Shown here one piece after another: positions 14,978 through 39,926 of a DNA stretch of 45,425 bases. Source of the DNA: an uncultured Anaerolineales bacterium (GTDB lineage Bacteria; Chloroflexota; Anaerolineae; B4-G1; SLSP01); the NCBI GenBank assembly GCA_964385885.1, contig CAYLRT010000012.1:1-45425 (forward strand), in the 5' to 3' direction. Each line of letters opens with the position of its first letter. Position 1 is the stretch's first letter. Below the pieces are notes generated by a model, which did no database searches, was not told where the DNA came from, and saw only the letters and a program-made list of their open reading frames with translations. Position numbers and translations under genes: made by a program.

Positions 14978-15632
14978 CTAGATCCTCCAGACGGGGTGCT
15001 CTGAGATGGGATTCGAGACAAGTGAGAGCTGGTTCGAGCTCTCTGGTAAGTGTCTCCAGTGCTATGAGCCCGGACGGCTTACCCCGTAGCCAGGCCCAGA
15101 AACGATCATACCAAGTGAGCTTGCTGGGTGCTCTTACTCGTAGAGCCGCTTGTGCATATGGTTCAAGCAGGTCGGGGACTGGCAATCTTTTTGTCTCCAT
15201 TTCGCTGACGATTTGGCGGATTGGCAGGTGATGCTCGAATGCCAGGATCTGGAGCACAAGCCGCCCGAAGAGCTGGTCAAATCGGGGCTTGGAGTACCTG
15301 CCGCGCTCGATCTGTTGCAGGCGGTCGTGCCATAGTCCCACCGCACCTTGCAGTTGTCTCTTCCTCACTCGGCGGTGTCCACGTGTATGCCTGACGCGCC
15401 GGATGCTTCTGAGTGCTACGTAGGTGGCGAGGAGGAGCGCAGCGGTCATGAGATAGCGTTGTGGCAGCGCGCGCATGATGACACCGATCAGCCATATTTC
15501 GTAAGCCAGTGGCGTAACGATGGCCACACGTATAAAGTCCTCCATCATAAAGGCGAGCGGAAGCGCTGCAATGATAAGGATCAGGACGGCAAACAACACT
15601 CGCTTAAGTTTTGTCGTAAGCGTTATGCTCAT
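14949..15632 (-). CDS. hypothetical membrane protein
   Basis: Three N-terminal hydrophobic helices are followed by a basic/helical cytoplasmic part. It overlaps both neighbours by 29 nt. Confidence 0.6.
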   Translation of the reverse strand: MSITLTTKLKRVLFAVLILIIAALPLAFMMEDFIRVAIVTPLAYEIWLIGVIMRALPQRYLMTAALLLATYVALRSIRRVRHTRGHRRVRKRQLQGAVGLWHDRLQQIERGRYSKPRFDQLFGRLVLQILAFEHHLPIRQIVSEMETKRLPVPDLLEPYAQAALRVRAPSKLTWYDRFWAWLRGKPSGLIALETLTRELEPALTCLESHLRAPRLEDLGESTDPKLQ

Positions 15633-16599: not shown

Positions 16600-16647
16600 A
16601 CATCACCGCACGAAGCATCTTTGTTTTTCTACCTTTAGACATAAAGT

Positions 16648-17469: not shown

Positions 17470-17476
17470 GGCTGGT

Positions 17477-19576: not shown

Positions 19577-19659
19577 GATATAGTCTCCTTACTTAAACGA
19601 AAAGCCCCGGGACACAGGCCACATCTGCATCACAGTCGGTGCCGCGTGGTGTGGCCAGC

Positions 19660-19687
19660 ATTATAGTCTTGTCGTTGATAGGATCAA
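19660..19687 (-). promoter_or_regulatory. putative promoter for the protease-murI array (TTGATC - 16 nt - TATAAT on the minus strand)
   Basis: The reverse complement of 19682-19687 is TTGATC and of 19660-19665 is TATAAT. The -35 lies inside the first copy of the tandem palindromic repeat. Confidence 0.45.
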
Positions 19688-19709
19688 GCCGGTTGATAGG
19701 ATCAAGCCG
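19675..19709. repeat. tandem direct repeat (2 x 18 bp, 17/18 identical), each unit containing the palindrome TTGAT-AGG-ATCAA
   Basis: TTGATAGGATCAAGCCGG (19675-19692) is followed by TTGATAGGATCAAGCCGT (19693-19710), in the divergent intergenic region. Confidence 0.85.
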
Positions 19710-19718
19710 TTGGTATTG

Positions 19719-19727
19719 TGCTATAAT
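19719..19727 (+). promoter_or_regulatory. extended -10 promoter element TGCTATAAT
   Basis: TGnTATAAT at 19719-19727. The first plausible start codons of the downstream gene are at 19726 and 19738, which implies a very short or absent leader. Confidence 0.4.
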
Positions 19728-19737
19728 GTCGTTGAGT

Positions 19738-24084: not shown

Positions 24085-25971
24085 ATGTATGGTTATCACG
24101 GGAAGATACTTCATATTGATCTGACAAATCGTGAGACTTGGGTGGAGGAGAAGCCGGAGTCCTGGTACAAGATGTGGATCGGCGGTGTAGCAATGGCGAC
24201 CCGTCTGTTGTGGGAAAACATCAAACCGGGATGTGACCCTCTTTCGCCGGAGAACCCGATTTGCATAGCGAATGGCATTTTTGCAGGCACCCCTGTGCCT
24301 GTAGGAGCGAAATATGGCCTGGCGTCTAAATCCCCACTGACGGGCTGGGTGGGGGATAGTCTCTCAGGGAGTTGGTTCTCGGTGGCACTGAAGCGCACGG
24401 GATGGGATGGTATTGTCATCCATGGGGCCAGCGAGAAGTGGGTGAACGTCTTCGTGGATGATGAACGTGTCCAGTTCCGTGATGCGGAAAAGTACCTGGG
24501 ATTGGGTACCTTTCAGACCGAGGAGGCGATCCGCGAGGATCTAATGGACGATCAAGTGCGTTCCGCGACTATTGGGCCCGCTGGTGAGAACCTGGTTCTC
24601 TATGCGAACGTCACCAACGACGGCCGCCAAGCCGGCCGGACTGGCCATGGCGCGGTCTGGGCATCGAAAAAGCTCAAAGCGCTATCGGTTCGGGGGACGA
24701 AGGGAGTGCGTGTTGCTGATCCAGAGACTTTGATGAAGTTGTCATTCGATATCATCCAGGCGGCCCAGGGCCCCCATACAGCGAAATATCGCATCTTAGG
24801 CACCGTGACCAACGTGCTCAACATGAACAAGCTCGGGCTACTGCCGACTCGGAACTTTCAAGAGGGTGTCTTTGAGCATGCGGAGCTGGTGAGTGGCGAG
24901 TATCTCGAGGAGCATCACAAAGTCAAGAAGATCGCGTGTGCGCAATGCCCTATTGCATGTGAGCAGGTCTCCGAAGCCAAACAAGGGATGTATGCTGGCG
25001 CCCGCACAGGTATTGACTATGAGTGTCTGTTTGCCAATGGCCCCAATTGTGGCATCAGCGACATGAATGCGATCATCAAGATGATTGATCTGTGTGACCG
25101 GGGCGGGATGGACGCGATGACCAACGGCGTTGTCGTCTCGTGGACTATGGAGTCGTTCGAACGTGGTGTGCTAAAGAAAGAAGACTTCCGATGCGCGAAG
25201 TACCCGGAGGGCTTCGAGCCGTACTTTGGCAATGCTGAAGCTGGCGTTACGCTTACCGAGATGATTCGCGATCGCGAGGGCATTGGCGCGTTACTCTCTC
25301 TGGGGGTGAAGCAAGCCAGCGAGCAAATCGACAAAGAGAGGGGCACGGAGAGCTACAGATGGGCTATGCACATCAAGGGATTGGAGAACCCCGGATATGA
25401 TGCCCGTGGTCTAAAAACCTTCGCTTTGGGGTTGGCTGTAGGCACCCGGGGGGGGTGTCATAACCGGACGGCTGCATACGATCCTGATATCAAAGGTGTG
25501 GTCGATCGCTTTTCAGTCGATGAGACCCGCGGTGAACTGGCCAAGAGCACGGAAGAGTATGCGGCAGTCTATGACACATTGCCTCTGTGTAAGTTCATTC
25601 GTCGATGTTTTACTGGCAAAGCGGATCGATCAGGGGCGTGGCCAGCGATTGCCCAGCTTATCAACGCCACGGTCGGATGGGATTTTGATTATGACGCGGT
25701 TGACCTGATCGGGGTGCGCGCCACAACCATCAAGAAGGCTTTCAATATCCGCGAGGGATGGACCCGTGATGACGATCATCTCCCGTATCGGACGCATCAC
25801 GACCCCATGACAAAGGGCCCCTCGGCTGGTCACGTCGTGACGAAAGAGGAGTTGGAATATCTCAAAGATCTCTACTACAAGGCCAAGGGCTGGACACCGG
25901 AGGGCTTGATACCGAAAGCCAAGTTGATTGAGCTCGGCATGGAAGATGTTGCCGAGGAAATCGGCGTCTAG
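24085..25971 (+). CDS. aor: tungsten/molybdopterin aldehyde:ferredoxin oxidoreductase family enzyme
   Basis: The N-terminus MYGYHGKILHIDLTN...WIGG...DPLSPENP and blocks KSPLTG, IGPAGENLV, GRTGHGAVWASKKLKA and ACAQCPIAC ([4Fe-4S] cysteines) align collinearly by eye with Pyrococcus-type AOR. AAGGAGG SD. Confidence 0.93.
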   Translation: MYGYHGKILHIDLTNRETWVEEKPESWYKMWIGGVAMATRLLWENIKPGCDPLSPENPICIANGIFAGTPVPVGAKYGLASKSPLTGWVGDSLSGSWFSVALKRTGWDGIVIHGASEKWVNVFVDDERVQFRDAEKYLGLGTFQTEEAIREDLMDDQVRSATIGPAGENLVLYANVTNDGRQAGRTGHGAVWASKKLKALSVRGTKGVRVADPETLMKLSFDIIQAAQGPHTAKYRILGTVTNVLNMNKLGLLPTRNFQEGVFEHAELVSGEYLEEHHKVKKIACAQCPIACEQVSEAKQGMYAGARTGIDYECLFANGPNCGISDMNAIIKMIDLCDRGGMDAMTNGVVVSWTMESFERGVLKKEDFRCAKYPEGFEPYFGNAEAGVTLTEMIRDREGIGALLSLGVKQASEQIDKERGTESYRWAMHIKGLENPGYDARGLKTFALGLAVGTRGGCHNRTAAYDPDIKGVVDRFSVDETRGELAKSTEEYAAVYDTLPLCKFIRRCFTGKADRSGAWPAIAQLINATVGWDFDYDAVDLIGVRATTIKKAFNIREGWTRDDDHLPYRTHHDPMTKGPSAGHVVTKEELEYLKDLYYKAKGWTPEGLIPKAKLIELGMEDVAEEIGV

Positions 25972-26017
25972 ACTGTTTGTCGACGAGACTCTGGATTAGA
26001 TGACAGGAGAGCGATCA

Positions 26018-26509
26018 ATGGCCTTACCTGCGACTTCGAAGTACAAATACATTACGTGTGACCCAGAGAAATGCATTGGCTGCCAGCTTTGCGAATATAT
26101 CTGTTCCTATACCAAAACCGGCGAGTACAATTCCTACCGCAGTCGGATCCGTACAGTACGGGTGGATGAAATCCTGATTACAGCGATTGCATGCCGCACT
26201 TGTGAGAATGCTCCATGCGTCGCTGTCTGCACGCGGGATGCACTGACCCAAGATCCAGAGACAGGTGTCATTCGTGTGGATGCAGAGTTGTGCGACGGTT
26301 GCGCTTGGTGCATCGAAGCATGCGATTTTGGCGCTATCTCCATCAATCCAGCCACAAAACTTGCAGAGATCTGCGATCTCTGTGAGGGAGAAGAAGACGG
26401 CCCTCAATGTGTAATTTGGTGCCCGAAGGATGCCCTGGAGCTAACCACACCGGAACAACGTGCTCAGAAGGCCCGACGCAAGCTGGCCACAGAAGAGGCC
26501 CTGCGCTGA
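26018..26509 (+). CDS. multi-[4Fe-4S] ferredoxin-like electron-transfer subunit
   Basis: Motifs CIGCQLCEYIC, CRTCENAPCVAVC, CDGCAWCIEAC and CDLC...C..WCP. AGGAGA SD before the ATG at 26018. Confidence 0.85.
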   Translation: MALPATSKYKYITCDPEKCIGCQLCEYICSYTKTGEYNSYRSRIRTVRVDEILITAIACRTCENAPCVAVCTRDALTQDPETGVIRVDAELCDGCAWCIEACDFGAISINPATKLAEICDLCEGEEDGPQCVIWCPKDALELTTPEQRAQKARRKLATEEALR

Positions 26510-26673
26510 CACAGCTGTCCACGGTGTGAAATGGGCTACTTGGAGCGTGTCCCACAGAACTGAGCGTGACAGGCTCGGCCTCGAGTCACGCCTGCTGCTG
26601 CCGAGTTCAGACGCGTGTACAATCCCATGAATTCCGCTTTTGTCGCGCGATAGCTCTGAGGAGAGATGGTGCT

Positions 26674-29232
26674 GTGGTTGAAGAAACAAAGCTAGAACCC
26701 GAGAAGTCCGAGGAATTGCGCATAGGTGTTTATGTCTGTCATTGTGGTTCCAACATCGCGAGTGTGATTCCGCCGTCTGAGGTGGTGGAGTTCGCCAAGA
26801 CATTGCCTGGTGTGGTCCTTGCCAAAGATCATCGGTACATGTGCTCGGACCCTGGCCAGTCCATGCTTCAGGATGACATCAGGCAATACGGGCTCAATCG
26901 AATTGTCGTGGCCGCGTGCACGGTTGCGATGCATGAACCCACGTTCCGGTCGTGTATCTCGGACGCGGGACTGAACCCGTTTCTATTTGAGATGGCAAAC
27001 ATTCGTGAGCACGATTCGTGGGTTCATGGTCATGAGAAGGAGCAAGCTCTTCAGAAGGCGAAGGAGATTGTAGCGGCCGCTGTTGCAAAGGTCAGCCACG
27101 CTTACCCACTGGAGATGTTTAAGGTGCCGGTCACTCGACGCGCGCTGGTGATCGGTGGGGGAATTGCCGGGATTTCCGCCGCGCTCGACCTCGCCGACAT
27201 GCAAATAGAGACGTACCTGGTTGAGAAGTCTCCCTCTATCGGCGGTCACATGGCTCAGCTCGACAAGACTTTTCCCACGATGGACTGCTCGATCTGCATT
27301 GAGGCACCCAAGATGGTCGACGTGGGTAAGAACAAGTTCATCCATTTGTTGACCTACTCTGAGGTGAAAGAGGTCTCGGGCTATATTGGGAACTTCCATG
27401 TGACAATCGAGAAGAAGCCACGCTACGTTGTGGAGGATCGCTGCACAGGGTGCGGCCTATGCGCGGAGGTGTGCCCTATTGATGTTCCAAATGACTTTGA
27501 GGAGGGGCTGGGGCCACGCAAGGCTATCTATGTCCCTCTGGCCCAGGCGGTCCCCTCTATATATACCATCGATAGGGATGCCTGTATAGAATGCTACAAG
27601 TGTGTCGAGGCCTGTGGCCCGTTGGAGGCTATTAATTTCGCTCAGCAGCCAGAGATCGTCGAGATAGACGTCGGTACGATCATCGTGGCGACAGGTTTCG
27701 ATATCTGGGATCCATCGCCGATCGAGGAATACGGCTATGGTGTCTTTGATAATGTCACAACCATGATGGAGATCGAACGGCTGCACTGTGCCGGTGGCCC
27801 GACGCTAGGCCAGTTTGTTCGCCCCTCAGACGGGCAGGTCCCGAAGACACTGGGCTTGATCCAGTGCGTAGGCTCTCGCGACAAGCGGTATCACGAGTAC
27901 TGCTCCGGCTTCTGTTGCATGTACACTATCAAGAATGCATTGCTCCTGAAGTGGCTCTATCCCGACATGGATATCACGATCTTCCGTATTGACATTCGTG
28001 CGCCGGGTAAGACCTACGAGGAATTCTACGAGCGTGCTCGGGAAGCCGGCGTTCACTTCGTGCAGGGGCGCCCCGCAGAGATCAGAGAGGATCCGGTTAC
28101 CAAGAATCTGATTGTCCGTGCTGACAATGTGAGTCTGGGCAAACCAATGGAATATGAGTTTGAAATGGTGGGATTGGCGACAGCGGCCATTGCCACAGAG
28201 GGATCAGATCTCCTGGCACGGACGTTGACGGTCGCCACAGACACGCATGGCTTTTTCCTGGAATCGCATCCCAAGTTGAAGCCTATTGACGCCCCCACTG
28301 AAGGCATCTACTACGCAGGAGCGGCCCAGGGGCCGAAAGACATTCCTCAGAGTGTAAGTCAAGCCAGCGGAGCTGCCGGGCGCGCGGCCCGCGTCCTCTC
28401 CCATGACACATGGGAGATTGATCCCATCGTCGCTTACGTCCATCCTGATCGCTGTATCAATGCGCGTGGCGGCAAGTGTTCGATCTGTGCCCAGGTCTGT
28501 CCCTACGGCGCAGTTGACAACCGTCCCGGCTCTGGGGAACCGTCACGTATCATCCCTGCTAAGTGTCACGGTTGCGGGACGTGTGTCGCTGAATGCCCTC
28601 ACAATGCCATTACTCAGCATCACTTCACGGATGGACAAGTGCTGGCACAGATCCATGCGTTCCTGGCAGATAAGCCAGAGGAGAAAGTCCTGGCTTTTGT
28701 GTGTCGCTGGTGCAGCGGCATGGGAGCAGACAACGCCGGGGTCAGTCACTTTGAGTATCCGGCCAACACGCGCCTTATCATGGTGATGTGTGCTGGCCGC
28801 GTGGATCGGGACTTTGTGTTGGAGGCATTCCGGTTGGGTGCTGGTGCTGTTCTGGTGTCAGGTTGTCATCCCCAGGACTGTCACTACATCGATGGCCGCC
28901 AGCATGCTGAGGAACGCATGGCTAGAGTCGCAAAGCAACTCGACCGTTTAGGGATCACTCCCGGCAGGTTCAGGGTTGAATCTGTTTCGGCCACTGAGGG
29001 CGCTAAATGGGCTCAGATCATGCGGGAGATGGGTGGGTTGGTTAAAGAACTTGGTCCAGAGCGGATCGCTGAGGAAAATGCTCAGATGAGGCCCCATCTC
29101 ACGAAGTTCTTGCGTCGACTTGGCGAGATCCCGGGCGTGTCTGAAGTGCTGATTGGAAGCCGAGCAGAGGCTCGGCTGGCTGCAGTGGACATGCCGTTGG
29201 TTCAGTTGGCCAAGACAACTGGAGGCGAATGA
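26674..29232 (+). CDS. hdrA: HdrA-like FAD/FeS protein fused to a C-terminal MvhD (FlpD) domain
   Basis: RIGVYVCHCGSNIA, ALVIGGGIAGISAALDLA (FAD), CVGSRDKRYHEYCSGFCCMY and two ferredoxin-type motifs. The C-terminus FVCRWCSGMGADNAG...MCAGRVD...LVSGCHPQDCHY is MvhD-like. The probable GTG start at 26674 lies 8 nt after GAGGAGAG. The track ORF begins at 26566. Confidence 0.9.
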   Translation: MVEETKLEPEKSEELRIGVYVCHCGSNIASVIPPSEVVEFAKTLPGVVLAKDHRYMCSDPGQSMLQDDIRQYGLNRIVVAACTVAMHEPTFRSCISDAGLNPFLFEMANIREHDSWVHGHEKEQALQKAKEIVAAAVAKVSHAYPLEMFKVPVTRRALVIGGGIAGISAALDLADMQIETYLVEKSPSIGGHMAQLDKTFPTMDCSICIEAPKMVDVGKNKFIHLLTYSEVKEVSGYIGNFHVTIEKKPRYVVEDRCTGCGLCAEVCPIDVPNDFEEGLGPRKAIYVPLAQAVPSIYTIDRDACIECYKCVEACGPLEAINFAQQPEIVEIDVGTIIVATGFDIWDPSPIEEYGYGVFDNVTTMMEIERLHCAGGPTLGQFVRPSDGQVPKTLGLIQCVGSRDKRYHEYCSGFCCMYTIKNALLLKWLYPDMDITIFRIDIRAPGKTYEEFYERAREAGVHFVQGRPAEIREDPVTKNLIVRADNVSLGKPMEYEFEMVGLATAAIATEGSDLLARTLTVATDTHGFFLESHPKLKPIDAPTEGIYYAGAAQGPKDIPQSVSQASGAAGRAARVLSHDTWEIDPIVAYVHPDRCINARGGKCSICAQVCPYGAVDNRPGSGEPSRIIPAKCHGCGTCVAECPHNAITQHHFTDGQVLAQIHAFLADKPEEKVLAFVCRWCSGMGADNAGVSHFEYPANTRLIMVMCAGRVDRDFVLEAFRLGAGAVLVSGCHPQDCHYIDGRQHAEERMARVAKQLDRLGITPGRFRVESVSATEGAKWAQIMREMGGLVKELGPERIAEENAQMRPHLTKFLRRLGEIPGVSEVLIGSRAEARLAAVDMPLVQLAKTTGGE

Positions 29233-29840
29233 TGGCATCGAACACCCACGGTGTGCTGAATCCTTTTACGATCGAGGTGCTTGAGACGCAAGGTGGACAA
29301 CTGGTGCTGCAATGTTATCAGTGTGGGACTTGCTCGGGATCCTGCCCTGTCATTGACGAGATGGAGTATGGCCCGCGGCGTATCTTGTACATGATCCAAA
29401 TGGGTATGGAGCAGGCAGTCCTGAGCAGTAAGGACATTTGGCGATGCGTGTCGTGCTATTCATGTGCGAACCGATGCCCGCGTGGCATCGAGATCACTGA
29501 CTTGATGGCTGACCTACGGCGTCTAGCTACGGTCAAAGGCTATGCGCGGGACAAAGAGGCGGAATTCGGTCAGGCCTTTGCGGAGACGATTGCAGCTCAC
29601 GGACGGCTGTTTGAACCAGAGCTGTTGATGCGTTATTACCTCCGGGTTCTGGACGTGAAGAGCCTAGTCGAAATGGTACCCCTGGGTTTGAAGATGTTGG
29701 CCAAAGGGAAACTTCCTTTCCTACCTGAGAGGATTGATGACCCAGAAGACATGAAGGCAACGGAGGTCGCTCCTTCTACGAGATTGAGGGTTGCCACCGT
29801 GTTTCTGCGGAGACCAGAGAAGGAGTCGGCGGAGCCATGA
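29229..29840 (+). CDS. hdrC: HdrC-like iron-sulfur subunit
   Basis: CYQCGTCSGSCPV and CVSCYSCANRCPRG motifs. The start overlaps the hdrA stop (ATGA). Confidence 0.88.
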   Translation: MMASNTHGVLNPFTIEVLETQGGQLVLQCYQCGTCSGSCPVIDEMEYGPRRILYMIQMGMEQAVLSSKDIWRCVSCYSCANRCPRGIEITDLMADLRRLATVKGYARDKEAEFGQAFAETIAAHGRLFEPELLMRYYLRVLDVKSLVEMVPLGLKMLAKGKLPFLPERIDDPEDMKATEVAPSTRLRVATVFLRRPEKESAEP

Positions 29841-30718
29841 ATGAAGTCCAAGCTTATGGTTACTATCCTGGATGCAGTCTGGCCTCAAGCGCCAAGGAAT
29901 ATGACCTCTCGGTACGTGCTGTGTTCGCACACTTGGGCCTTCCGTTGGTGGAGATTGAGGATTGGAACTGCTGCGGCGCGGTGCATGGAGACGTGAACGA
30001 CGCTGAGGCTGGCCTCGTTCTTCCATCGCGGAATCTCGCGCTGGCGGAGTCCCAGGGTTTTTCAGTCGTCATAGCCCCTTGCAGTGGCTGTTACCGCAAT
30101 CTGAGGCGAGCAAGTAAGCGCCTGGACGCAGACCGCACTGCTCGCGAGAAAGTAAATGCCCGCCTAAAGGGCGGGTTGAACGTTACCAGCCATATTGAGG
30201 TGATGCATCCGCTTTACCTGCTTCTCAGGGATTACGGACTTGACCGGATAGCGGCTGCGGTATCGAATCCGCTGGACGGATTACGGGTGGCGAGTTACTA
30301 CGGCTGTATGTTGACCCGCCCGCGAGATGTCTTTGACAGCCCAGAAAGGCCGTCGGGCCTAGATGATTTGGTCAGGGTGCTCGGCGCCCAGCCGGTTGAC
30401 TACCCGATGAGGGCCAAATGTTGTGGGGGGGCGTTGGCTATCTCTCATAGCGATGTCACAGTGCACCTTACGGGGGATATCCTGAAGTCGGCGAGGCAAG
30501 CTGAGGCCGACATCGTGATGCTTGCCTGTCCCATGTGTCATACTGCCTTAGACGGTTACCAGGAGAAGGTTGAGAGAGCGCAACATGAGCATTTGGGACT
30601 GCCGGTGCTCTATTTCACGCAGGTCATGGGACTGGCGTTTGGACTTGACCCGAGACAGTTGGGTTTCGAGCGACACATGGTGTCCCCGCGTCCGCAACTG
30701 GCGAAGCTCGGATTCTAG
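29837..30718 (+). CDS. hdrB: HdrB-like subunit with two CCG domains
   Basis: YYPGCSL...WNCCGA and YYGCMLTRP...KCCGG motifs. The start overlaps the hdrC stop (ATGA). Confidence 0.9.
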   Translation: MNEVQAYGYYPGCSLASSAKEYDLSVRAVFAHLGLPLVEIEDWNCCGAVHGDVNDAEAGLVLPSRNLALAESQGFSVVIAPCSGCYRNLRRASKRLDADRTAREKVNARLKGGLNVTSHIEVMHPLYLLLRDYGLDRIAAAVSNPLDGLRVASYYGCMLTRPRDVFDSPERPSGLDDLVRVLGAQPVDYPMRAKCCGGALAISHSDVTVHLTGDILKSARQAEADIVMLACPMCHTALDGYQEKVERAQHEHLGLPVLYFTQVMGLAFGLDPRQLGFERHMVSPRPQLAKLGF

Positions 30719-30743
30719 TTTCTAGTTGGGAGGAATTCACACT

Positions 30744-31793
30744 ATGAAGCGTGGGACTACACTGAAACACCGAACGAACCAGACGCTGGTCCTGGAGCGG
30801 AAGATGTTGACGCATCATGATGTCCTGACATGGGATCTGACGCGTTGCGTCGGGTGCCAGATTGGTCCCAAGATCTGCCCAAAGGACGCGTTGAGCCATA
30901 GTGGGGGAGAGATTGTCGATGGCCGTGTTGTCTCCAAGCTTATGGTCGATGTGGACCCCACCCTTTGTGTCTTCTGTGGTATGTGTGTGGTGATGTGCCC
31001 GGTGAATGCCATCACGATGACGCTTAACGGCGAGCCGTACGTGCCTGTCCAAGCCTATGAGGCGTTCCCCGTACTTATCGAGTCAACGACGTTTGATCCC
31101 CAGGCTTTCGATTGGGCACGGAAGGACTTCGTCATTGAGAATTGCCCGACTTCCGCCATCGACTACGACGAAGCGCACCATACACTAACGGTGGATGACA
31201 CACGGTGTATTCGATGCCGTCAGTGTGAAGTAGCTAGTGATGGGGCTTTTGAAGTTGTCCAGCCTTGGGAAGGAACGGTCACGTTGCGGCGCGACAAATG
31301 CATCGAAGGTTGCTTGGCCTGTGCTGATGTTTGTCCCACCCGTGCGCTGCACATCAATGAGGAAGGTGAGTTAGTCCTTGCAGACTATTACTGTATCAAG
31401 TGTGGAGCTTGCATGCAGGTGTGTCCGGTAAAGCCAGAGATGGAAGATTATGAGGTGACTTTCACCTCACAAGGCGTCGAAGTTACAAAGACTTTACAGC
31501 GTGTCGCCAACCGTGACGAGCTTCCTATATGGGTTGAGCGGTGGCGTGTGAAGCATACGCCGGTCCAAAGTGGCGCTTGGCTCGAAGCTCTGGAGAGGCT
31601 GGCCGATGCCAAGGCTGGCATGGTTGAGTTAGAGCGTAAGCGTGCTATCAAGCGCCGAGACCTTATTGTTGCGCTCAAAGGAGGTCGGGCGTTGCAGGAG
31701 CGCGAAGCTCAGCGTCGCCAAGCACAGTTGAGTGCGCTCAAAGGTGGTGATGCCTTCGTGGAAGAAAGCCATTCTGAGAACATGATAGCATAG
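30744..31793 (+). CDS. polyferredoxin-like protein with a charged helical C-terminal tail
   Basis: Motifs CVGCQIGPKICP, CVFCGMCVVMCP, CIRCRQCEV, CLACADVCP and CIKCGACMQVCP. GGGAGGAA SD before the ATG at 30744. The last ~100 aa are Arg/Glu/Ala-rich. Confidence 0.8.
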   Translation: MKRGTTLKHRTNQTLVLERKMLTHHDVLTWDLTRCVGCQIGPKICPKDALSHSGGEIVDGRVVSKLMVDVDPTLCVFCGMCVVMCPVNAITMTLNGEPYVPVQAYEAFPVLIESTTFDPQAFDWARKDFVIENCPTSAIDYDEAHHTLTVDDTRCIRCRQCEVASDGAFEVVQPWEGTVTLRRDKCIEGCLACADVCPTRALHINEEGELVLADYYCIKCGACMQVCPVKPEMEDYEVTFTSQGVEVTKTLQRVANRDELPIWVERWRVKHTPVQSGAWLEALERLADAKAGMVELERKRAIKRRDLIVALKGGRALQEREAQRRQAQLSALKGGDAFVEESHSENMIA

Positions 31794-31831
31794 CCCGTCC
31801 CATGTGGGCATGATAAACTCGCCTGCCCTTA

Positions 31832-31864
31832 CAGCGAGGGGTGACGAATTGTCGTCCCTCGCTG
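31832..31864 (+). terminator. hairpin downstream of the polyferredoxin gene (possible terminator/attenuator)
   Basis: CAGCGAGGG (31832-31840) pairs with CCCTCGCTG (31856-31864): a 9-bp perfect stem with a 15-nt loop, followed by TTGTGCTT. Confidence 0.45.
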
Positions 31865-32017
31865 TTGTGCTTCAGCAATTCCAAATATGGCGGGTTCACA
31901 AGGCCGTGACCTTCATCTAAGGCCGGACTGTGCAGCACTTGACCCACAATCACGTGGTTTATGGCCGCAGAATAGGGCTGGCCGGCCTTAGCAGGTTTCA
32001 TATTTGGGAATTGCTGG

Positions 32018-32045
32018 TTGTGCTTTGTCCGGTCAGTGTTATAAT
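32018..32045 (+). promoter_or_regulatory. putative promoter for the nuo operon (TTGTGC - 16 nt - TGT-TATAAT)
   Basis: TTGTGC at 32018-32023 and an extended -10 TGTTATAAT at 32037-32045, 28 nt upstream of the nuoA ATG (GGAGG SD at 32060-32064). Confidence 0.5.
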
Positions 32046-32072
32046 CGTTGGCTGAGTTTGGGAGGCGTTGCT

Positions 32073-32429
32073 ATGCTTCATCCCTATGCGCAACTTGGGA
32101 TTTTTCTGTTGATTGCCACAGTGATTGGTGTCGCACCAATTGCGTTGGCATGGTTGGTTAGCCCAAAGAAACAGAATCCCCGCAAGTCCCAGATCTATGA
32201 AAGCGGTAATCCTCCTTTTGGGGAGGCCTGGATCGAGTTCAAACCTCAGTATTATTTGTATGGCTTGGCCTTCCTTGCCTTTGACGTCGAGGCCGCGTTT
32301 CTGTTCCCTTGGGCTCTGGCTTACAACAAGCTGCCATTGTTCGCCGTTGTCGAAGCAGCTCTCTTCATTGCTCTGCTAGGCGTTGGCCTTATCTATGTGT
32401 GGCGCAAGGGATGGCTGACATGGATGTGA
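32073..32429 (+). CDS. nuoA: NADH-quinone oxidoreductase subunit A
   Basis: 118 aa with three TM helices, YESGNPPFGEAW...FLAFDVEAAFLFPWA. The track ORF start at 32004 would overlap the promoter. Confidence 0.92.
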   Translation: MLHPYAQLGIFLLIATVIGVAPIALAWLVSPKKQNPRKSQIYESGNPPFGEAWIEFKPQYYLYGLAFLAFDVEAAFLFPWALAYNKLPLFAVVEAALFIALLGVGLIYVWRKGWLTWM

Positions 32430-33715
32430 TGTCCGATTTGTGGCTCCCAATTGTACGGTCGCTCGGCATCGCTCTGTTCCCCGTTGTGGCAGTTGTCTTC
32501 CTCATCTGGGTGGCACGCAAAGTCATTGCGCGCATGCAGGATAGGCTTGGCCCCACCAATGCGGGAACTCCAGCGGGCCCAGATGCCATTTTCCAGACTG
32601 TTGCCGACGCAATCAAGATCCTGACTAAAGAACTAGTTATCCCGGAAGGTGCGGACCGGACCGTCTTCATTGCTGCGCCGATGCTTGTTACCGCGGTAGC
32701 CGTCGCAGTTTGGGCGGTGATTCCTCTGGGCCCCGGAGAGTTCCAGGTGGTAGATCTGGAAATCGGGGCTTTCTATGTAGTGGCTATGTCATCCCTGGCT
32801 CCTTTTGCTATGATCATGGCCGGATGGAGCTCCCGGAACAAATACGCAGAGGTAGGGGCCTTCCGGGCAGTCTCACAGATCATCGGGTACGAAATTCCTC
32901 AGACGTTGGCATTGTTGGTCCCTGTATTGCTTACAGGTTCACTGTCGCTTCAGAAAATTATCGAGGCTCAGCGAGTGCCATACATTGTGCTTGCCCCGTT
33001 TGCCGCACTTGTTTATTTCCTTGCCACAATGGCAGAGGTAAACCGACTTCCCTTTGAGCTCGCAGAGGCAGACTCCGAGATCGTAGCTGGTTACTTCACT
33101 GAATACAGTGGGATGATGTTCGGGTCTTTCTATCTGGCTGAGTTCATCAACAATCTTACGGCTTCTGTTCTGTTTTCCATCCTATTCCTGGGAGGGTGGC
33201 GTGGCCCAGGCGTAGACGCTGTTCCGCTGTTAGGCCCTGTTTGGCTTCTGGTGAAGGCGTTCTTGGTGTTCAATTTCCTTAACGTCTTCTGGGCTGCTAT
33301 GCCTCGGCTCCGTATTGATCAAGTTTTGGCCTTCAATTGGAAGTTCCTGGTCCCTCTGGCACTTCTCGTGCTGCTGACCACCGCGCTCGTGGATAAGCTG
33401 ATCGTGTATCTGGGCTATACGACCGACGGGATGAGGGCTGTGGGTCTGATTTTGGCCAATCTGGTGCTTGGCGTGGGCCTGGTGGGTTATCTGTTTGCTC
33501 TGGGACGCCGGAGAAAGCGGGCTGGTGTGAGTGTCCCCGAGGAGTTCCTGCCGTTGCTCTCGTCTGGTTCACATGGCGCCTTGAGAATGCGCTCAGCAGA
33601 TGTGGTGCCCCTGTCGCGTCATAATGGGACGTCGGGCATGCGGTACTCCCGAGATGAGAGGGGGAAAAGCAGCACCGTCGAACTGCAAGCAAACCACATC
33701 TCGAAAGGTGAGTGA
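32411..33715 (+). CDS. nuoH: NADH-quinone oxidoreductase subunit H, with an unusual hydrophilic C-terminal extension
   Basis: ARKVIARMQDRLGP...ADAIKILTKE and PFELAEADSEIVAGYFTEYSGMMFGSFYLAEF motifs. Candidate ATG starts are at 32411, 32420 and 32429 (the last overlaps the nuoA stop as TGATG). Confidence 0.92.
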   Translation: MADMDVMSDLWLPIVRSLGIALFPVVAVVFLIWVARKVIARMQDRLGPTNAGTPAGPDAIFQTVADAIKILTKELVIPEGADRTVFIAAPMLVTAVAVAVWAVIPLGPGEFQVVDLEIGAFYVVAMSSLAPFAMIMAGWSSRNKYAEVGAFRAVSQIIGYEIPQTLALLVPVLLTGSLSLQKIIEAQRVPYIVLAPFAALVYFLATMAEVNRLPFELAEADSEIVAGYFTEYSGMMFGSFYLAEFINNLTASVLFSILFLGGWRGPGVDAVPLLGPVWLLVKAFLVFNFLNVFWAAMPRLRIDQVLAFNWKFLVPLALLVLLTTALVDKLIVYLGYTTDGMRAVGLILANLVLGVGLVGYLFALGRRRKRAGVSVPEEFLPLLSSGSHGALRMRSADVVPLSRHNGTSGMRYSRDERGKSSTVELQANHISKGE

Positions 33716-33720
33716 GTGCG

Positions 33721-34218
33721 ATGCCGATTGGGCAGATAGCATTCCTGGGCTTCGCGGTTGTCTCAGTGATAGCGGCATTGCGGGTGGTGACCTCGCGTCG
33801 TGTATTCCACGCCGCTCTCTGGCTCATTGTTGCTTTCTTTGGGGTGGCAGCGGTCTACATGTTGTTAGAATCACCTTTCATGGCGGCTATTCAGATCTTC
33901 CTCTACATTGGTGGTGTGGCGGTGCTGACCGTCATCGCGATTATGGTGACAAAAGGTGTCATGCGAGAAGATCGTCGTATTTTGAACCGCCCTGTGGCTG
34001 CCGGGGTTGTCTCGCTGGCTCTCTTCGTAACGATGACCTGGATGATCATTCAGTTGCCTCTTCCAGAGGAGCCCGTCTTTCCCGTTGTTGAGGGCTCCCT
34101 GAGCCTATTGGGAGCTGCGCTGGTGGATCCGAAAGGATACCTGCTCCCCTTTGAGGTGGTCTCTGTGATGCTATTAGCCGTTTTGGTTGTCTCGCTCTAC
34201 CTTGGCAAGGAGCGATGA
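33721..34218 (+). CDS. nuoJ: NADH-quinone oxidoreductase subunit J
   Basis: FLGFAVVSVIAALRVVTSRRVFHAALWLIVAFFGVAAVYMLLESPFMAAIQIFLYIGGV. Start is ATG 33721 or GTG 33712. It follows nuoH directly, leaving no room for nuoI. Confidence 0.9.
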   Translation: MPIGQIAFLGFAVVSVIAALRVVTSRRVFHAALWLIVAFFGVAAVYMLLESPFMAAIQIFLYIGGVAVLTVIAIMVTKGVMREDRRILNRPVAAGVVSLALFVTMTWMIIQLPLPEEPVFPVVEGSLSLLGAALVDPKGYLLPFEVVSVMLLAVLVVSLYLGKER

Positions 34219-34221
34219 TTC

Positions 34222-34542
34222 ATGGGCGCTTCGTCTGTGCCGCTTGCATGGTACCTGATCCTGGGTTCCGCGCTGTTTTGCATTGGTGTGTACGGTGTCT
34301 TGGCCACCCGGAATCTGGTCGTTATCATCATGTCCATCGAGTTGATGCTCAATGCCGTCGTGCTAGATCTGGTAGCCTTTGCCCGGTTCATTGAGCCAGC
34401 TCGGGTGACAGGCAAGGCGTTTGGCATCATTCTCTACGCTACCGCTGCTGCCGAAGCCGCTTTGGGGCTGGCATTGGTCATATCGATCTGGCGTACTGAG
34501 AACACGGTTGAGGTCGAAGAGATCGACGTACTTAAGGGTTAA
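34222..34542 (+). CDS. nuoK: NADH-quinone oxidoreductase subunit K
   Basis: 106 aa, LILGSALFCIGVYGVLATRNLVVIIMSIELMLNAV...AAAEAALGLALV. AAGGAG SD. Confidence 0.93.
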   Translation: MGASSVPLAWYLILGSALFCIGVYGVLATRNLVVIIMSIELMLNAVVLDLVAFARFIEPARVTGKAFGIILYATAAAEAALGLALVISIWRTENTVEVEEIDVLKG

Positions 34543-34564
34543 TCATTCGCTTGGACATCGTGAC

Positions 34565-36781
34565 ATGAACATTCGAGATCTCACAATGGTAGCGTGGCTA
34601 GTCCCTGCAGGGCCCCTTCTGGCCTTTGTGTTGATAACGTTGGGGGTGCATCGGAGCCGCGGCCTCAGTCGTGTGCTCGCATTGGTAGGCATCTTTGTAG
34701 CCCTGGTGCTATCGATGATCCTGCTCAGTGAGGTGGTGAGGCAGCCCACTGTGCTCGCGTCTTTGGAGAACACGCAAGACGGAAAGCGCCTTTCGTGGTT
34801 TCGAGCTGGGGTGGAGGAGGCCGCCATCGGTGTACAGGTGGACCTCGTCGATGGGGCTGCCCTGGGCATGGTGACAATCGTGTGTCTGATGATCTTTGTC
34901 TACAGCTTGGGGTATATGCATGGAGATCCCAAGACGAGCCGGTTTTTCGCCTATATCTCCCTCTTCGCAGGTGCCATGCTGGGGGCTTTAGTCGTTGACA
35001 ACCTACTAGCCTTCTTCATCTTCTGGGAGATCATGGGCACGTGTTCCTATCTGCTGATCGGTTTCTGGTGGGAGCGAGAGTCGGCTTACAAAGCCGCACT
35101 GAAGGCATTTCTGGTCACTAAGACTGGAGATGCCTTTATGCTGCTCGGTTTGGTTCTTCTGTACAGCCAGGTGGGCACCCTCTCTTACGCGGGACTGTTC
35201 GACCAGGCAACTGTAAGCAAGCTGGCCCAGACTCCGTTCATCGGCGGCGTCTCAGTAGCCACCATGGCAGCTTTGCTGCTGTTTGGTGGTACCATTGGAA
35301 AGAGCGCGCAACTTCCGCTTCATGTGTGGCTTCCTGATGCCATGGAGGGCCCGACTCCCGTGTCCGCCTTGATTCACGCGGCGACCATGGTATCGGCGGG
35401 CGTCTACTTAATGATCCGGGCATATCCACTCCTTGAGGCCTCACAAGCGATGCCGGTGCTGGCCGTTGTGGGTACCGTTACAGCGGTCTATGCTGCGGTT
35501 GTTGCCTTGGCCCAGCGAGACATCAAGCGTGTCTTGGCCTTTTCCACTATCAGTCAGTTGGGCTATATGGTTGCTGCGCTGGGCATTGGTGCATACGCAG
35601 CCAGCGTGTTTCATCTTATCACGCACGCATTCTTCAAAGCCCTGTTGTTCATGGCGGCTGGGTCTGTCATTCATGGCATGGAACATGGTCATCATCAGTT
35701 ACATGGTCATGCCGTACCACAGGGTGAAGCGGACTTCGACCCCAACGATATGGCGCTCATGGGGGGATTGGCATTTCGAATGCCGGTTACCGCGATCACG
35801 TTTCTGATTGGGAGTCTCTCCCTATCGGGTTTCCCTCTGGTGACCGCTGGTTTCTGGTCGAAAGATGAGATCTTGGCCGAGGCTTGGCGATCTAGCCCCT
35901 CTGTTTTCTGGGCGTTGACGGTGACGGCTGGGCTCACGGGGTTTTATGCTGCTCGTCAGATTGGCCTTGTGTTTCTTGGGGCTCCCCGCTCACGGGTGGC
36001 TGTGCACGCTCGAGAAAGCGGCGCAGTCATGGTGCTACCGTTGGTGATCCTGGCCCTCTTCTCAATCAGCCTCGGGTGGTTGGGTATACCGCGGGAGTTC
36101 CCTTTGCTCGGGCGCGTTGTGCCTTTCCACTTCATGGATCTCATAAGTCATTCCATCTCTGTGGGGGAGGACGCCGCCAAGGCTTTGACCGGTGGGAGCT
36201 TCGTCTGGCAGCCCCTGGCCCTTAGCGTTCTCTTCGGCTTGGGCGGGCTTGTCGCGGGATGGTTCGTATACAGCCGGTATTCAGCTAGGGCGGACAATGA
36301 GTTTCGTGACCCCGTAGAGGGGGCGCTAAGCTATCTGCATACAGGGTGGCTGTATCGTGCTATGGTCCACCGGTTTTACTTCGATGAAGCCTACCAGGCG
36401 TTGTTTGTGCGTCCAACGCTTGCGCTTGCAGACGCCATGGCATTGGTGGACCACAGGATTATTGACGGGATTGTGGTCTCCCTCGCTAGTGGTTTCGGCG
36501 GAAGGGGCATCATCTTGCCCGCTGCTCGTGCTGCTGACAGACATCTTTGGGATGGTCTGGTCAATGCTGTGGGAGCGGTCAGTCGTTCTGTGGCCCAGGT
36601 GTCGCTGTTCCTCGATACGGACCTGATTGACGGCGCGGTGAACGCAATTGCTCGCGGAACGCGCACTCTTGGGCGGTGGGTGAGGCGCACCCAGACCGGA
36701 CATCTGCCTGATTATCTTTGGAACGCATTCGCAATCGTGCTTGTTCTCGTTGCCGCTTTGCTTCTATTTCATCGCTTTTGA
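34565..36781 (+). CDS. nuoL: NADH-quinone oxidoreductase subunit L
   Basis: WEIMGTCSYLLIGFWWERESAYKAALKAFLVTKTGD, SAQLPLHVWLPDAMEGPTPVSALIHAATMV, and a C-terminal lateral-helix region. The ATG at 34565 lies after the nuoK stop. Confidence 0.93.
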   Translation: MNIRDLTMVAWLVPAGPLLAFVLITLGVHRSRGLSRVLALVGIFVALVLSMILLSEVVRQPTVLASLENTQDGKRLSWFRAGVEEAAIGVQVDLVDGAALGMVTIVCLMIFVYSLGYMHGDPKTSRFFAYISLFAGAMLGALVVDNLLAFFIFWEIMGTCSYLLIGFWWERESAYKAALKAFLVTKTGDAFMLLGLVLLYSQVGTLSYAGLFDQATVSKLAQTPFIGGVSVATMAALLLFGGTIGKSAQLPLHVWLPDAMEGPTPVSALIHAATMVSAGVYLMIRAYPLLEASQAMPVLAVVGTVTAVYAAVVALAQRDIKRVLAFSTISQLGYMVAALGIGAYAASVFHLITHAFFKALLFMAAGSVIHGMEHGHHQLHGHAVPQGEADFDPNDMALMGGLAFRMPVTAITFLIGSLSLSGFPLVTAGFWSKDEILAEAWRSSPSVFWALTVTAGLTGFYAARQIGLVFLGAPRSRVAVHARESGAVMVLPLVILALFSISLGWLGIPREFPLLGRVVPFHFMDLISHSISVGEDAAKALTGGSFVWQPLALSVLFGLGGLVAGWFVYSRYSARADNEFRDPVEGALSYLHTGWLYRAMVHRFYFDEAYQALFVRPTLALADAMALVDHRIIDGIVVSLASGFGGRGIILPAARAADRHLWDGLVNAVGAVSRSVAQVSLFLDTDLIDGAVNAIARGTRTLGRWVRRTQTGHLPDYLWNAFAIVLVLVAALLLFHRF

Positions 36782-36798
36782 TGGGGAGGATGCTAACA

Positions 36799-38382
36799 AT
36801 GACTTTCCCGATATTGAGTATCACGCTGTTCCTACCCCTGGTTGGCGCGCTCGTGTTACTGCTGCTTCCAAGACGATGGCTGTGGGTGATTCGGGTTATC
36901 GGCATTCTCTTCGCTCTGGCGTCTTTGGTATTGACATTCTATGTGTGGTGGCTGGCTGGCGGTTCATCTTGGTCTTCCCTGCTCTCTGGGGAGAGTCTCT
37001 CAACCATGCAGCTAGTCGAAGATAGATCCTGGATACCCTCCCTTGATCTCCGGTATACCCTGGGTGTGGATGGCTTGAGCGCTCCCATGGTGGCGTTGTC
37101 TGGACTTCTTACGGCGCTGGCGCTCTTCTACAGCGCATTTACTGTTGAGAAGCGGGTGAAGGAGTACTATGTGCTGTTCTTGGTTCTCCTCACGGGGGTC
37201 TTGGGGGTGTTTCTCTCGCTTGATCTCATCCTCTTCTATGTCTTTTGGGAAGTGGGCCTCGTCCCGATGTTCCTCCTGATTGGCATCTGGGGCGGACCCC
37301 GGCGTGAGTACGCAGCGATCAAGTTTTTCCTTTACACACTCGCTGGTAGCGTTTTCGGGTTGCTGGGCATTCTGGCAGTGCATCAGGAGACAGGAACCTT
37401 CAATATGCTTGATGCTGCCGCGGCGCGGCCATTTCTCTCAAATCCAACCTGGGCAACGGTTGTGTTCTGGGCCTTGTTTGTGGCATTTGCTATCAAGATG
37501 CCTGTCTTCCCCTTCCACACCTGGCTACCTGACGCGCACACTGAGGCCCCGACCTCAGGCAGTGTCCTGCTCGCGGGCATCATGTTGAAGTTGGGTAGTT
37601 ACGGTATGATGCGCATTGCCTTTCCCCTCTTCCCAGAGCGATTCTATCATTTCTCTGTGGAAGTGCCGGTCATCACGGTCATGGCACTGATGAGTATTGT
37701 CTATGGAGCGATCGTTTGCCTGGCTCAATGGGATCTGAAGCGGCTCGTCGCGTATTCGTCGGTGGCACACATGGGCTATGTAACGCTGGGCCTGGCGGCT
37801 GCCGCCGCGGCATGGCCCTTGGGGCCGGGCAGTAGCTCGGGTGCTGGCTGGCCATCGGCCTCTGTGTTCAATGCGGCTGCCTGGAGCCTGACGGGAGCAG
37901 CTCTGCAACAGTTCTCTCATGGAGTGGTGACAGGTGCGATGTTCTTCCTGGTGGGCATGCTCTATGAGCGTGCCCACACGAGAGACCTAAAGGCATTCGG
38001 TGGGTTGGCCTCGGTTATGCCCCATTACTATGGCTTGACTCTGGTCACTGCTTTTGCCTCACTGGGTCTGCCCGGTTTGATTGGGTTCTGGAGTGAGTTA
38101 TTTGTCTTCCGTGGTACGATCCATCTCCTGCCGGTCGTCGCGTTCCTTGGTATCGTTGGAATCGTGTTTACAGCGGGTTACGTATTGTGGAAAATCGTGC
38201 AGTTCCTGTTCTTGGGCACGCTCGATCAACAGCGTTGGGGGACATTGAGAGATCTCGCATGGTGGGAAAAGGTTACCGTGTGGCCTCTGGCTGTGCTCAT
38301 GGTGGTGTTGGGTGTCTACCCCGCGCCTCTCATCGATACGTTTAGCGCTGCGCTGGCGGCGTTACTCCACGGGCTCTCGTAG
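36799..38382 (+). CDS. nuoM: NADH-quinone oxidoreductase subunit M
   Basis: FYVFWEVGLVPMFLLIGIWGGPRREYAAIKFFLYTLAGS and FPFHTWLPDAHTEAPTSGSVLLAGIMLK. GGGGAGGA SD before the ATG at 36799. Confidence 0.93.
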   Translation: MTFPILSITLFLPLVGALVLLLLPRRWLWVIRVIGILFALASLVLTFYVWWLAGGSSWSSLLSGESLSTMQLVEDRSWIPSLDLRYTLGVDGLSAPMVALSGLLTALALFYSAFTVEKRVKEYYVLFLVLLTGVLGVFLSLDLILFYVFWEVGLVPMFLLIGIWGGPRREYAAIKFFLYTLAGSVFGLLGILAVHQETGTFNMLDAAAARPFLSNPTWATVVFWALFVAFAIKMPVFPFHTWLPDAHTEAPTSGSVLLAGIMLKLGSYGMMRIAFPLFPERFYHFSVEVPVITVMALMSIVYGAIVCLAQWDLKRLVAYSSVAHMGYVTLGLAAAAAAWPLGPGSSSGAGWPSASVFNAAAWSLTGAALQQFSHGVVTGAMFFLVGMLYERAHTRDLKAFGGLASVMPHYYGLTLVTAFASLGLPGLIGFWSELFVFRGTIHLLPVVAFLGIVGIVFTAGYVLWKIVQFLFLGTLDQQRWGTLRDLAWWEKVTVWPLAVLMVVLGVYPAPLIDTFSAALAALLHGLS

Positions 38383-38396
38383 TAGGGAGGCTTGCC

Positions 38397-39926
38397 GTGC
38401 GGTTATCAGAGGACCTACGATATCTTCTCCCGGCGCTTTTGCTCGCGGGCACAGCGATTGCAGTTCTGTTGATGGACATCATGCCTCGCAGGGGTGGGCA
38501 GGATGATGATGCGTCTACCCGAGAAGCGCGACGCACCCGGGGGTTCTGGTGGCTGTCAGTGTGTGGCACACTGCTCACCATGGTGGCGATCTTGTGGCTC
38601 AGTGTCCCTATGTTCCAGTTGGACGACAGTACCTCACACCGGGTCCTGGGAATGATGGTGTTTGACCCTTTGGCGGGTTATGGCTGGCTGCTTCTTGATG
38701 GCGCGCTCCTGTTTCTTCTGGGGATGGGGCGATCCTATGTAGCCCATCGGATTGCCGAACCCGGATTGTTCTATGCTATGATGTTGCTTTTTGGTGCGGC
38801 GGCGTTTCTGCTTGTTGCAGCAACTAATACTATTATGCTTCTTCTCACCCTCGATTTTGTGAGTTTGCTGGGTTATGCGCTCACGGGCTTCCTTCATGAC
38901 GACCTGCGATCTACAGAGGGGGCGCTCAAGTATCTGGTCTATGGGGCGGTGCTCTCTGCTGTCATGGCGCTGGGGCTTGCCTGGTTGTATGGCATGACTG
39001 GATCCACTGACTACACCCAGGTCTCGCGAGCGCTGGCTGAAGGCCTGTGGCCCTGGTCAACGACCCGGCTCGTTCCCGCTGGGGCCCTGATCCCGGTGCT
39101 TGTGTTTGTCTTAACGGGATTTGCGTTCAAACTGGGCGTGGCACCATTTCATCAGTGGGTCCCTGATGCTTTTGAGGGAGCTCCGACGCCGGTGACCGCC
39201 ACGCTGGCTGTTCTCCCCAAAATCGCAGGATTTGCCGCTCTCGTACGGCTGACTGTAGTGATGCTGCCGGCAGGGTCAGAGCTGGCGCACATCTGGAGGA
39301 GTCCACTCATTCTCTCCCTTTCGTCCCTGGGAATGCTGGTCGGGAATCTGGCGGGCTTGTGGCAGAATAACATCAAACGTCTGATGGCTTACTCTGGCAT
39401 CGCACAGGCTGGATACGCTTTGGGTGGGGCCGTGGTTGGGAGTCAGGAAGGATACAGCAGCTTGTTTGTTTACTTGACGGCCTACACCATCGCAGAGCTG
39501 AGCATTTTCGCCGCGATCACTGTGGTGTCAGACGAGTTTGGTCTTGATGAGATCGATGATTATCGAGGTTTGTATCGACGGGCCCCCCTCTTGGCGGCGG
39601 TCCTTTTGATTGGCCTGCTCTCGCTTTTTGGAATGCCGGGCACAGCAGGCTTTATGGCCAAGTTGTGGCTGTTTTCAGCGGCATTGGATGCTCAACAATT
39701 GTGGTGGCTTGCCTTAGCTGCGGTCAACACCGTGGTCTCGATGGGCTATTATTGGCGTGTGATTCGGGTCGTCATGATGCACACGGATGAAGGCCTTGCC
39801 CCGTTGCCTGTCCCTTGGGCATCGCGGGCCACGCTGGTGCTGACATCATTGGTGGTGCTTGGCCTGGGGATTTTCCCAGGTACTATCATGCACTGGGCGC
39901 ATATCGCGGTAGCTGCGCTTTTCTAG
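38397..39926 (+). CDS. nuoN: NADH-quinone oxidoreductase subunit N
   Basis: APFHQWVPDAFEGAPTPVTATLAVLPKIAGFAAL. GGGAGG SD before the GTG at 38397. Confidence 0.92.
   Translation: MRLSEDLRYLLPALLLAGTAIAVLLMDIMPRRGGQDDDASTREARRTRGFWWLSVCGTLLTMVAILWLSVPMFQLDDSTSHRVLGMMVFDPLAGYGWLLLDGALLFLLGMGRSYVAHRIAEPGLFYAMMLLFGAAAFLLVAATNTIMLLLTLDFVSLLGYALTGFLHDDLRSTEGALKYLVYGAVLSAVMALGLAWLYGMTGSTDYTQVSRALAEGLWPWSTTRLVPAGALIPVLVFVLTGFAFKLGVAPFHQWVPDAFEGAPTPVTATLAVLPKIAGFAALVRLTVVMLPAGSELAHIWRSPLILSLSSLGMLVGNLAGLWQNNIKRLMAYSGIAQAGYALGGAVVGSQEGYSSLFVYLTAYTIAELSIFAAITVVSDEFGLDEIDDYRGLYRRAPLLAAVLLIGLLSLFGMPGTAGFMAKLWLFSAALDAQQLWWLALAAVNTVVSMGYYWRVIRVVMMHTDEGLAPLPVPWASRATLVLTSLVVLGLGIFPGTIMHWAHIAVAALF

Follow-up and report, generated by a model that had tools for sequence, protein, structure and literature searches.

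At positions 32073-39926 of the 45,425-nucleotide (nt) stretch of DNA analysed here, which comes from an uncultured Anaerolineales bacterium and is called the window below, seven intact reading frames on the plus strand form a nuoA-H-J-K-L-M-N operon. Profile searches with Pfam and NCBIfam assigned all seven, showing that the membrane-arm set of complex I (A, H, J, K, L, M and N) is complete in the window (Table 1). Start sites were set from the sequence, ribosome-binding sites and gene calls made independently for nearly identical contigs in public data; the nuoA call was identical in loci L001-L005, and nuoH, which overlaps nuoA by 10 nt, has an alternative ATG at 32411. The NuoN model TIGR01770 scored slightly below its cutoff (319.5 bits versus 332.6). 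The best solved-structure match of NuoL was cyanobacterial NdhF1 (1.3e-120), and the exact NuoK protein was present in 18 public contigs from several metagenomes. Inspection of the sequences revealed the FDVE and YESG loop motifs in NuoA, both membrane glutamates in NuoK (SIELM, AAAEAA) and the motifs FWEVG, AIKMP, MLKLG and FWSEL in NuoM, the product of the sole nuoM in the operon. The charged pump motifs (Lys/Glu) are intact in NuoL, NuoM and NuoN, with the acidic residue of transmembrane helix (TM) 5 being Asp in NuoN.

Table 1. Coordinates of the features discussed. Positions refer to the window unless a locus is named; L numbers denote loci on other contigs. HL, lateral helix of NuoL.
Feature	Position or locus	Strand	Details
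AOR, 4Fe-4S protein, HdrA2-MvhD fusion, HdrC, HdrB, polyferredoxin	24085-31793	+	Pfam, NCBIfam
Intergenic gap, polyferredoxin to nuoA	31794-32072	.	279 nt
nuoA	32073-32429	+	118 aa; ATG; GGGAGG ribosome-binding site; Pfam Oxidored_q4 7.7e-33
nuoH	32420-33715	+	431 aa; Pfam NADHdh 2.7e-101; NCBIfam NF004741 315 bits, cutoff 305
NuoH C-terminal extension	from near 33386 to 33715	+	extra predicted transmembrane helix and ~70 aa hydrophilic tail
nuoJ	33721-34218	+	165 aa; Pfam Oxidored_q3 3.7e-29
nuoK	34222-34542	+	106 aa; Pfam Oxidored_q2 1.1e-23; 3 nt after nuoJ
nuoL	34565-36781	+	738 aa; Proton_antipo_M 2e-79 and Proton_antipo_N; NF005141 576 bits, cutoff 556
NuoL HL segment	36374-36700	+	109 aa, versus 55 aa in canonical Chloroflexi NuoL; alignment, anchor-to-anchor length
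Three copies of the [IV][IV]DGxVN unit in NuoL	36455-36544, 36545-36622, 36623-36700	+	
nuoM	36799-38382	+	527 aa; Pfam Proton_antipo_M 5.3e-65; TIGR01972 523 bits; 17 nt after nuoL
nuoN	38397-39926	+	509 aa; GTG start; Pfam Proton_antipo_M 1.8e-64; 14 nt after nuoM
HL segment of 81-82 aa	L009, L039 arm		
HL segment of 106 aa	L012, L034		
HL segment of 109 aa	window		
HL segment of 132-136 aa	twelve further loci, 11 metagenome-assembled genomes		L008 and L016 denote one contig
HL segment of 161-164 aa	L011, L015		
L011, coordinates of interest	11763-12485, 14818-15058, 15595-17616		
L039, arm-only nuoA-H-J-K-L	5-4879	-	104-kb metagenome contig
L039, complete nuoA-B-CD-EF-G-H-I-J-K-L	9036-21755	+	divergent, about 4 kb from the arm-only cluster
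Peripheral-only operons	L041:9460-14125; L045:9464-14377; L048:2654-8508		

The initial annotation, made from the sequence alone, had described a tightly packed, membrane-only operon with nuoJ starting 6 nt after the nuoH stop, and had argued that there is no room for nuoB, nuoC or nuoD between nuoA and nuoH, or for nuoI between nuoH and nuoJ. Each of these points held. Junctions range from the 10-nt overlap to a 22-nt gap in front of nuoL and therefore leave no space for nuoB/C/D or nuoI between the genes; the first base of nuoJ indeed lies 6 nt beyond the end of the nuoH stop codon, so that 5 nt separate the two genes. Searching the whole 45-kb window by tblastn with Thermus Nqo4, Nqo5, Nqo6 and Nqo9 (the Nqo4 sequence identical to that in the PDB) returned no NuoB, NuoC or NuoD, and the NuoI query gave only weak ferredoxin-domain matches (E about 1e-5). 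Likewise, Pfam scans found no complex I subunit among the other large reading frames of the window. We also compared the operon with other systems built on antiporter-like subunits homologous to NuoL/M/N. Mrp antiporters have MrpE/F/G and lack NuoH, NuoA and NuoJ, and the MBH/MBS complexes carry NuoB/D/I homologues. The window operon encodes NuoH, NuoA and NuoJ, and its proteins score best on Nuo models: no Mrp or other antiporter model was the best NCBIfam match for any of the seven, and Mrp-type models appeared only as lower-ranked matches for NuoJ/K/L/M/N.

To place the operon among its relatives, gene context was recovered through NuoH at 55-100% identity, the homologues bearing source names such as 'Anaerolineae bacterium', and a NuoH genome scan with one genome per GTDB species yielded 23 loci in Anaerolineae/Anaerolineales metagenome-assembled genomes (MAGs), giving loci L001-L035 in all. 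The nuoH locus of all 35 had the layout nuoA-H-J-K-L-M(-M)-N without nuoB, nuoC, nuoD or nuoI, in reduced form in L011, and no nuoB/C/D was found in their flanks, up to 10 kb on each side. As the same layout recurred at all nuoH loci fetched, the membrane-only operon is an old, conserved trait of Anaerolineae and no accident of one contig. L009, L011 and L012 are more distantly related (NuoH 55-58% identical), and in them ATP synthase genes come after the operon, of which L011 keeps only a part. In L009, nuoM is present twice, in the order nuoL-M-M-N. That the window operon is a decaying, non-functional remnant of complex I is extremely improbable. Signs of decay do occur among relatives: in L011, an inserted nucleotidyltransferase/HEPN gene separates nuoJ from nuoK, nuoL is followed by an integrase gene and no nuoM or nuoN lies nearby, and NuoL is fragmented in L007. 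In the window, however, all seven frames are intact and functional residues are conserved, and the operon persists in species with NuoH identity down to 55%.

The initial annotation had also proposed asking whether these genes form a clade apart from canonical operons, and the answer was positive. Window NuoH is only 35-38% identical to NuoH from canonical Chloroflexi operons, versus 49-100% to that of arm-only relatives (49-59% for the arm-type NuoH of L039, L009 and L012), and NuoA shows the same divide. Judging by these identities, the arm-only genes are a separate, old lineage of complex I, and at least one genome holds both lineages. That genome is represented by L039, a metagenome contig on which an arm-only cluster lies about 4 kb from a divergent, complete operon, with a two-component system between them. 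On a related Chloroflexi contig (L043, 6519-12273, and L044), a canonical nuoA-B-CD-E-F cluster directly follows a bactofilin gene, with a Mur ligase gene nearby. This neighbourhood matches that of the arm-only operon in the window, yet the NuoA encoded there belongs to the canonical lineage and is 36% identical to window NuoA.

We then asked, as the initial annotation had recommended, whether the residues of the quinone cavity and E-channel are conserved, by aligning 123 arm-clade NuoH sequences with those of Thermus, E. coli and three canonical Chloroflexi. Window NuoH aligns to residues 10-332 of Thermus Nqo8 and retains 48 of the 76 positions that are invariant in the five references. Nearly all charged residues of the TM1-2 loop, the TM5-6 loop and the E-channel are kept (R36, D62, K65, E70, E163, R216, E223, E227, E235, E248, R299, R301 and D303 in Thermus numbering), each in at least 115 of the 123 arm-clade sequences; at E225, the window protein has Asp. 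In the Thermus complex I structure, the TM1-2 and TM5-6 loops of NuoH line the quinone cavity against NuoB/D. Such constraint on the loops would be hard to explain without a quinone module, and with these residues retained across the clade a quinone module is still to be expected. Together with the NuoA loop motifs and NuoK glutamates, the charged residues of NuoH thus proved mostly conserved, with one exception. NuoH residue 34 of the window protein (32519-32521) is Ala at the position of Thermus Nqo8 E35, the near-universal Glu of the 'ER(R/K)' motif, which corresponds to E36 in E. coli and E24 in human ND1. Across the arm clade this position is Ala in 61 sequences, Ser in 41 and Glu in 11, with the adjoining Arg kept in 122. 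The C-terminal extension of NuoH, in turn, varies among relatives (total length 375-439 aa), and M. smegmatis NuoH aligns over its extra helix.

The peripheral-arm half of the enzyme was sought with a NuoCD query, an X-masked consensus of fused NuoC and NuoD from Thermus, human and M. tuberculosis, run against a protein collection. Fused NuoCD genes viewed in context fell into two kinds. Complete canonical operons (nuoA-B-CD-E/F-G-H-I-J-K-L-M) were present on one contig with an Anaerolineae-labelled NuoCD and on three whose NuoCD clusters with Chloroflexi-labelled ones. The second kind comprised peripheral-only operons: nuoB-CD-G-I in L041 and L045-47, with no membrane subunit within 10 kb, and nuoB-CD-F-G-I in L048, an 8.6-kb contig with no membrane subunit on it. 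These operons are the exact complement of the gene content in the window; in all five, nuoI directly follows a short NuoG-like gene. A metagenome scan with the group-15 NuoCD alignment and two NuoC peptides mostly returned canonical operons from many phyla, with L048 as the one informative locus; none of its matches came from either of the two JGI samples in which the window organism occurs. According to PMC7117926, which cites Chadwick et al. 2018, cultured Chloroflexi including Anaerolinea thermophila keep nuoBCDI, with fused nuoCD, apart from their other nuo genes; in that study's own Chloroflexi MAG, nuoBCDI lies on a separate contig.

Taken together, the finding is real and largely explained: the operon is of the Anaerolineae type and encodes the membrane arm of a complex I that is either split or duplicated. 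More specifically, we favour, at a probability of roughly 65%, that this arm belongs to a proton-pumping enzyme of the complex I type and that the genes for the peripheral arm lie elsewhere in the genome, a split layout characteristic of Anaerolineae. In such an enzyme, NuoA/H/J/K would form the quinone-access and E-channel part, and NuoL/M/N the antiporter-like pumps, joined by the NuoL lateral helix. NuoB, NuoCD and NuoI, perhaps together with NuoG/F, would be encoded at another locus and form a module that docks on NuoH/NuoA, reduces menaquinone and thereby drives the pumps. Both the presence of a quinone module in the host genome and the identity of the electron donor are what we infer.

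Several observations weigh against this assignment. The only NuoCD labelled 'Anaerolineae' sits in a complete canonical operon, and L039 pairs an arm-only operon with a complete one, so the arm could be an extra paralogue. The peripheral-only operons could not be tied to Anaerolineae, and a quinone module of the host organism and of the 23 MAGs is presumed. Finally, Glu35 of NuoH (Thermus Nqo8 numbering) is Ala or Ser in 102 of the 123 arm-clade members.

Some of these points feed directly into a different account, which we consider unlikely, namely that the operon encodes an additional, paralogous membrane arm with no quinone module of its own, in a genome that also has a complete canonical nuo operon. 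Such an arm might compete for the peripheral arm of that operon, giving an enzyme of different pump stoichiometry, or act alone as an Mrp-like cation/proton module. Besides the arrangement in L039, the 35-38% identity between the arm-type and canonical NuoH/NuoA lineages fits this account, as do the complete canonical operons with fused nuoCD on Anaerolineae-labelled and other Chloroflexi contigs. Partial nuoAHJKLMN sets beside full operons are moreover documented in Streptomyces, Salinispora and Kocuria, and a similar role has been proposed for them in marine actinomycetes. Against it, PMC7117926 reports a separate nuoBCDI for Anaerolinea-type genomes, the strong constraint on the quinone-loop residues of NuoH speaks against a stand-alone antiporter, and the ATP synthase linkage in relatives suggests a core respiratory enzyme. 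An extra paralogous arm and a split enzyme are compatible with each other.

The initial annotation had left two options: either the operon is split, or it encodes a membrane module onto which some other electron-input module docks. The former is the better supported, being lineage-wide and reported in cultured relatives; for the latter, the support is circumstantial and comes from a cluster present in one subclade and set behind a 279-nt gap. This cluster, encoding an aldehyde:ferredoxin oxidoreductase (AOR) and Hdr proteins, lies between the bactofilin gene and nuoA at all arm-type loci that extend far enough upstream; the exceptions are L009, L011 and L012, which lack it. Its HdrA is fused to MvhD (NCBIfam HdrA2, 1039 bits, slightly below the cutoff of 1100). 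The gap between the hdr and nuo genes measures 163-371 nt in relatives; a scan of the window gap gave no promoter-like or terminator-like match and no Rfam family. In the polyferredoxin, the N-terminal part matches positions 8-103 of the 121 of the NuoI profile (E 1.6e-18), a likeness confined to the two-cluster ferredoxin domain. As a true NuoI, the polyferredoxin was rejected (66 bits versus a cutoff of 113), and an FwdF-type polyferredoxin model matches better.

Could HdrA2(MvhD)-HdrC-HdrB-polyferredoxin, fed by AOR, be the redox module that replaces NuoB/D/I? The AOR, ferredoxin, HdrA, HdrC, HdrB and polyferredoxin genes stand directly upstream on the same strand at all Hdr-clade loci with upstream sequence, and the NuoI likeness of the polyferredoxin points the same way. 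Even so, we regard this as very unlikely: the NuoI match falls short of its cutoff with FwdF-type polyferredoxin as the best family, the gap separates the two clusters, the arm-only operons of L009, L011 and L012 have no Hdr cluster beside them and NuoH retains its quinone-loop residues. No relative of complex I is known that couples pumping in the absence of homologues of NuoB/D. The AOR-Hdr block is probably a lineage-specific insertion adjoining the operon, a neighbour rather than a partner. It may nevertheless provide a metabolic link, for example as a source of reduced ferredoxin, if the enzyme has no NuoE/F, as may be the case.

Among relatives with less than 90% NuoH identity, AOR (80-87%) and HdrA (76-82%) are more conserved than the pump subunits NuoL (50-66%) and NuoN (40-62%), and the proteins of the Hdr block are in general the more conserved of the two sets. 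A population variant was seen at the HdrA/MvhD junction, where an AAA-to-TAA change in L001 (4463-4465, corresponding to window 28684-28686) splits the fusion into two genes. Gene calls in L004 are split at the same junction, and the window and L002 retain the fusion.

The most unusual feature of the operon is the lengthened lateral helix (HL) of NuoL. The HL segment was measured between two conserved anchors, (F/Y)xxDxxY at its start and, ahead of the final transmembrane helix, QTG at its end. In the arm clade, its length equals the 55 aa of canonical Chloroflexi NuoL plus one, two, three or four units of 26 aa, with two extra units in the window, and each unit repeats [IV][IV]DGxVN in register. 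At the DNA level, the helix region of nuoL in L011 contains an 81-bp tandem repeat (3.0 copies, 95% identity). According to PMC9040806, citing Chadwick 2018, a 26-aa insertion in the NuoL helix is tied to one extra pump subunit; the same article also notes clusters that have the insertion but encode no additional subunit. The window and all arm-type loci that cover the region have a single nuoM, except L009/L010, which are the same organism and have a second nuoM and one extra unit. This holds despite three or four extra units in relatives with intact operons.

Three readings of the long helix are possible: pump subunits encoded elsewhere, the single NuoM present in several copies or a slack helix. 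Going further, the arm might not be a three-pump arm at all, with stacked NuoM or subunits encoded elsewhere giving five to seven antiporter-like modules, and the helix would then set the proton-to-electron ratio in the manner of a ruler; we hold this to be quite improbable. A single-sequence AlphaFold2 model of the NuoL C-terminus reached a mean pLDDT of 47, too poor to use. If helix length does set the number of pump modules, the bacteria of the arm-only clade, which are abundant in anaerobic digesters and sediment, would provide a ready-made series in which to test how the stoichiometry of complex I is established and adjusted.

Among known systems, cultured Chloroflexi, Anaerolinea thermophila included, have a split '2M' complex I with nuoL-M1-M2-N (Chadwick et al. 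2018, ISME J 12:2668, as summarised in PMC7117926). It resembles the window operon in its membrane genes being clustered without nuoB/C/D/I, in the insertion in the NuoL lateral helix and in belonging to the same class. On that description, L009 has the exact nuoL-M-M-N form. The window differs from it in having one nuoM, two extra 26-aa helix units instead of one and an AOR-Hdr block upstream; of the 2M marks, it thus shows the NuoL helix insertion of ~26 aa and lacks a second nuoM between nuoL and nuoM.

The extra, partial nuoAHJKLMN of the marine actinomycetes Salinispora, Streptomyces and Kocuria (PMC6676996, PMC8622039) is identical to the window operon in gene content and order, again in a cluster without a quinone or NADH module. 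Those sets are additional copies beside complete operons and are treated as marine-adaptation genes (PMC6676996, PMC8622039). The Anaerolineae arm, in contrast, is clade-wide and linked to ATP synthase in relatives, with a full operon alongside seen only in L039.

A third comparison is offered by NDH-1, to which the NdhF1 match of window NuoL also points. In cyanobacteria and chloroplasts, the ndh genes of NDH-1 are scattered among several loci, and NDH-1 lacks NuoE/F. Cyanobacterial ndhI stays with ndhA (ndhAIGE), however, and ndhC-K-J keeps the A subunit with B and C, unlike the clean division between membrane arm and peripheral arm seen here.

A membrane-only nuo operon is therefore the normal state in Anaerolineae, has precedents in actinomycetes and has already been reported for cultured relatives, and no new enzyme type is to be read from its presence in the window. 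It does call for caution in annotation: scoring by module completeness will label complex I as 'partial' in such genomes, and automated pipelines may miss the coexistence of two nuo lineages in Chloroflexi. For specialists, the interest lies in the stepwise lengthening of the NuoL lateral helix without matching nuoM genes. Elsewhere in the window, at 3092-7235, genes for a hemerythrin/PAS/DUF438 protein and a hybrid-cluster (prismane) protein are grouped with one for a Crp-family regulator, an adjacency that suggests an oxidative or nitrosative stress unit.

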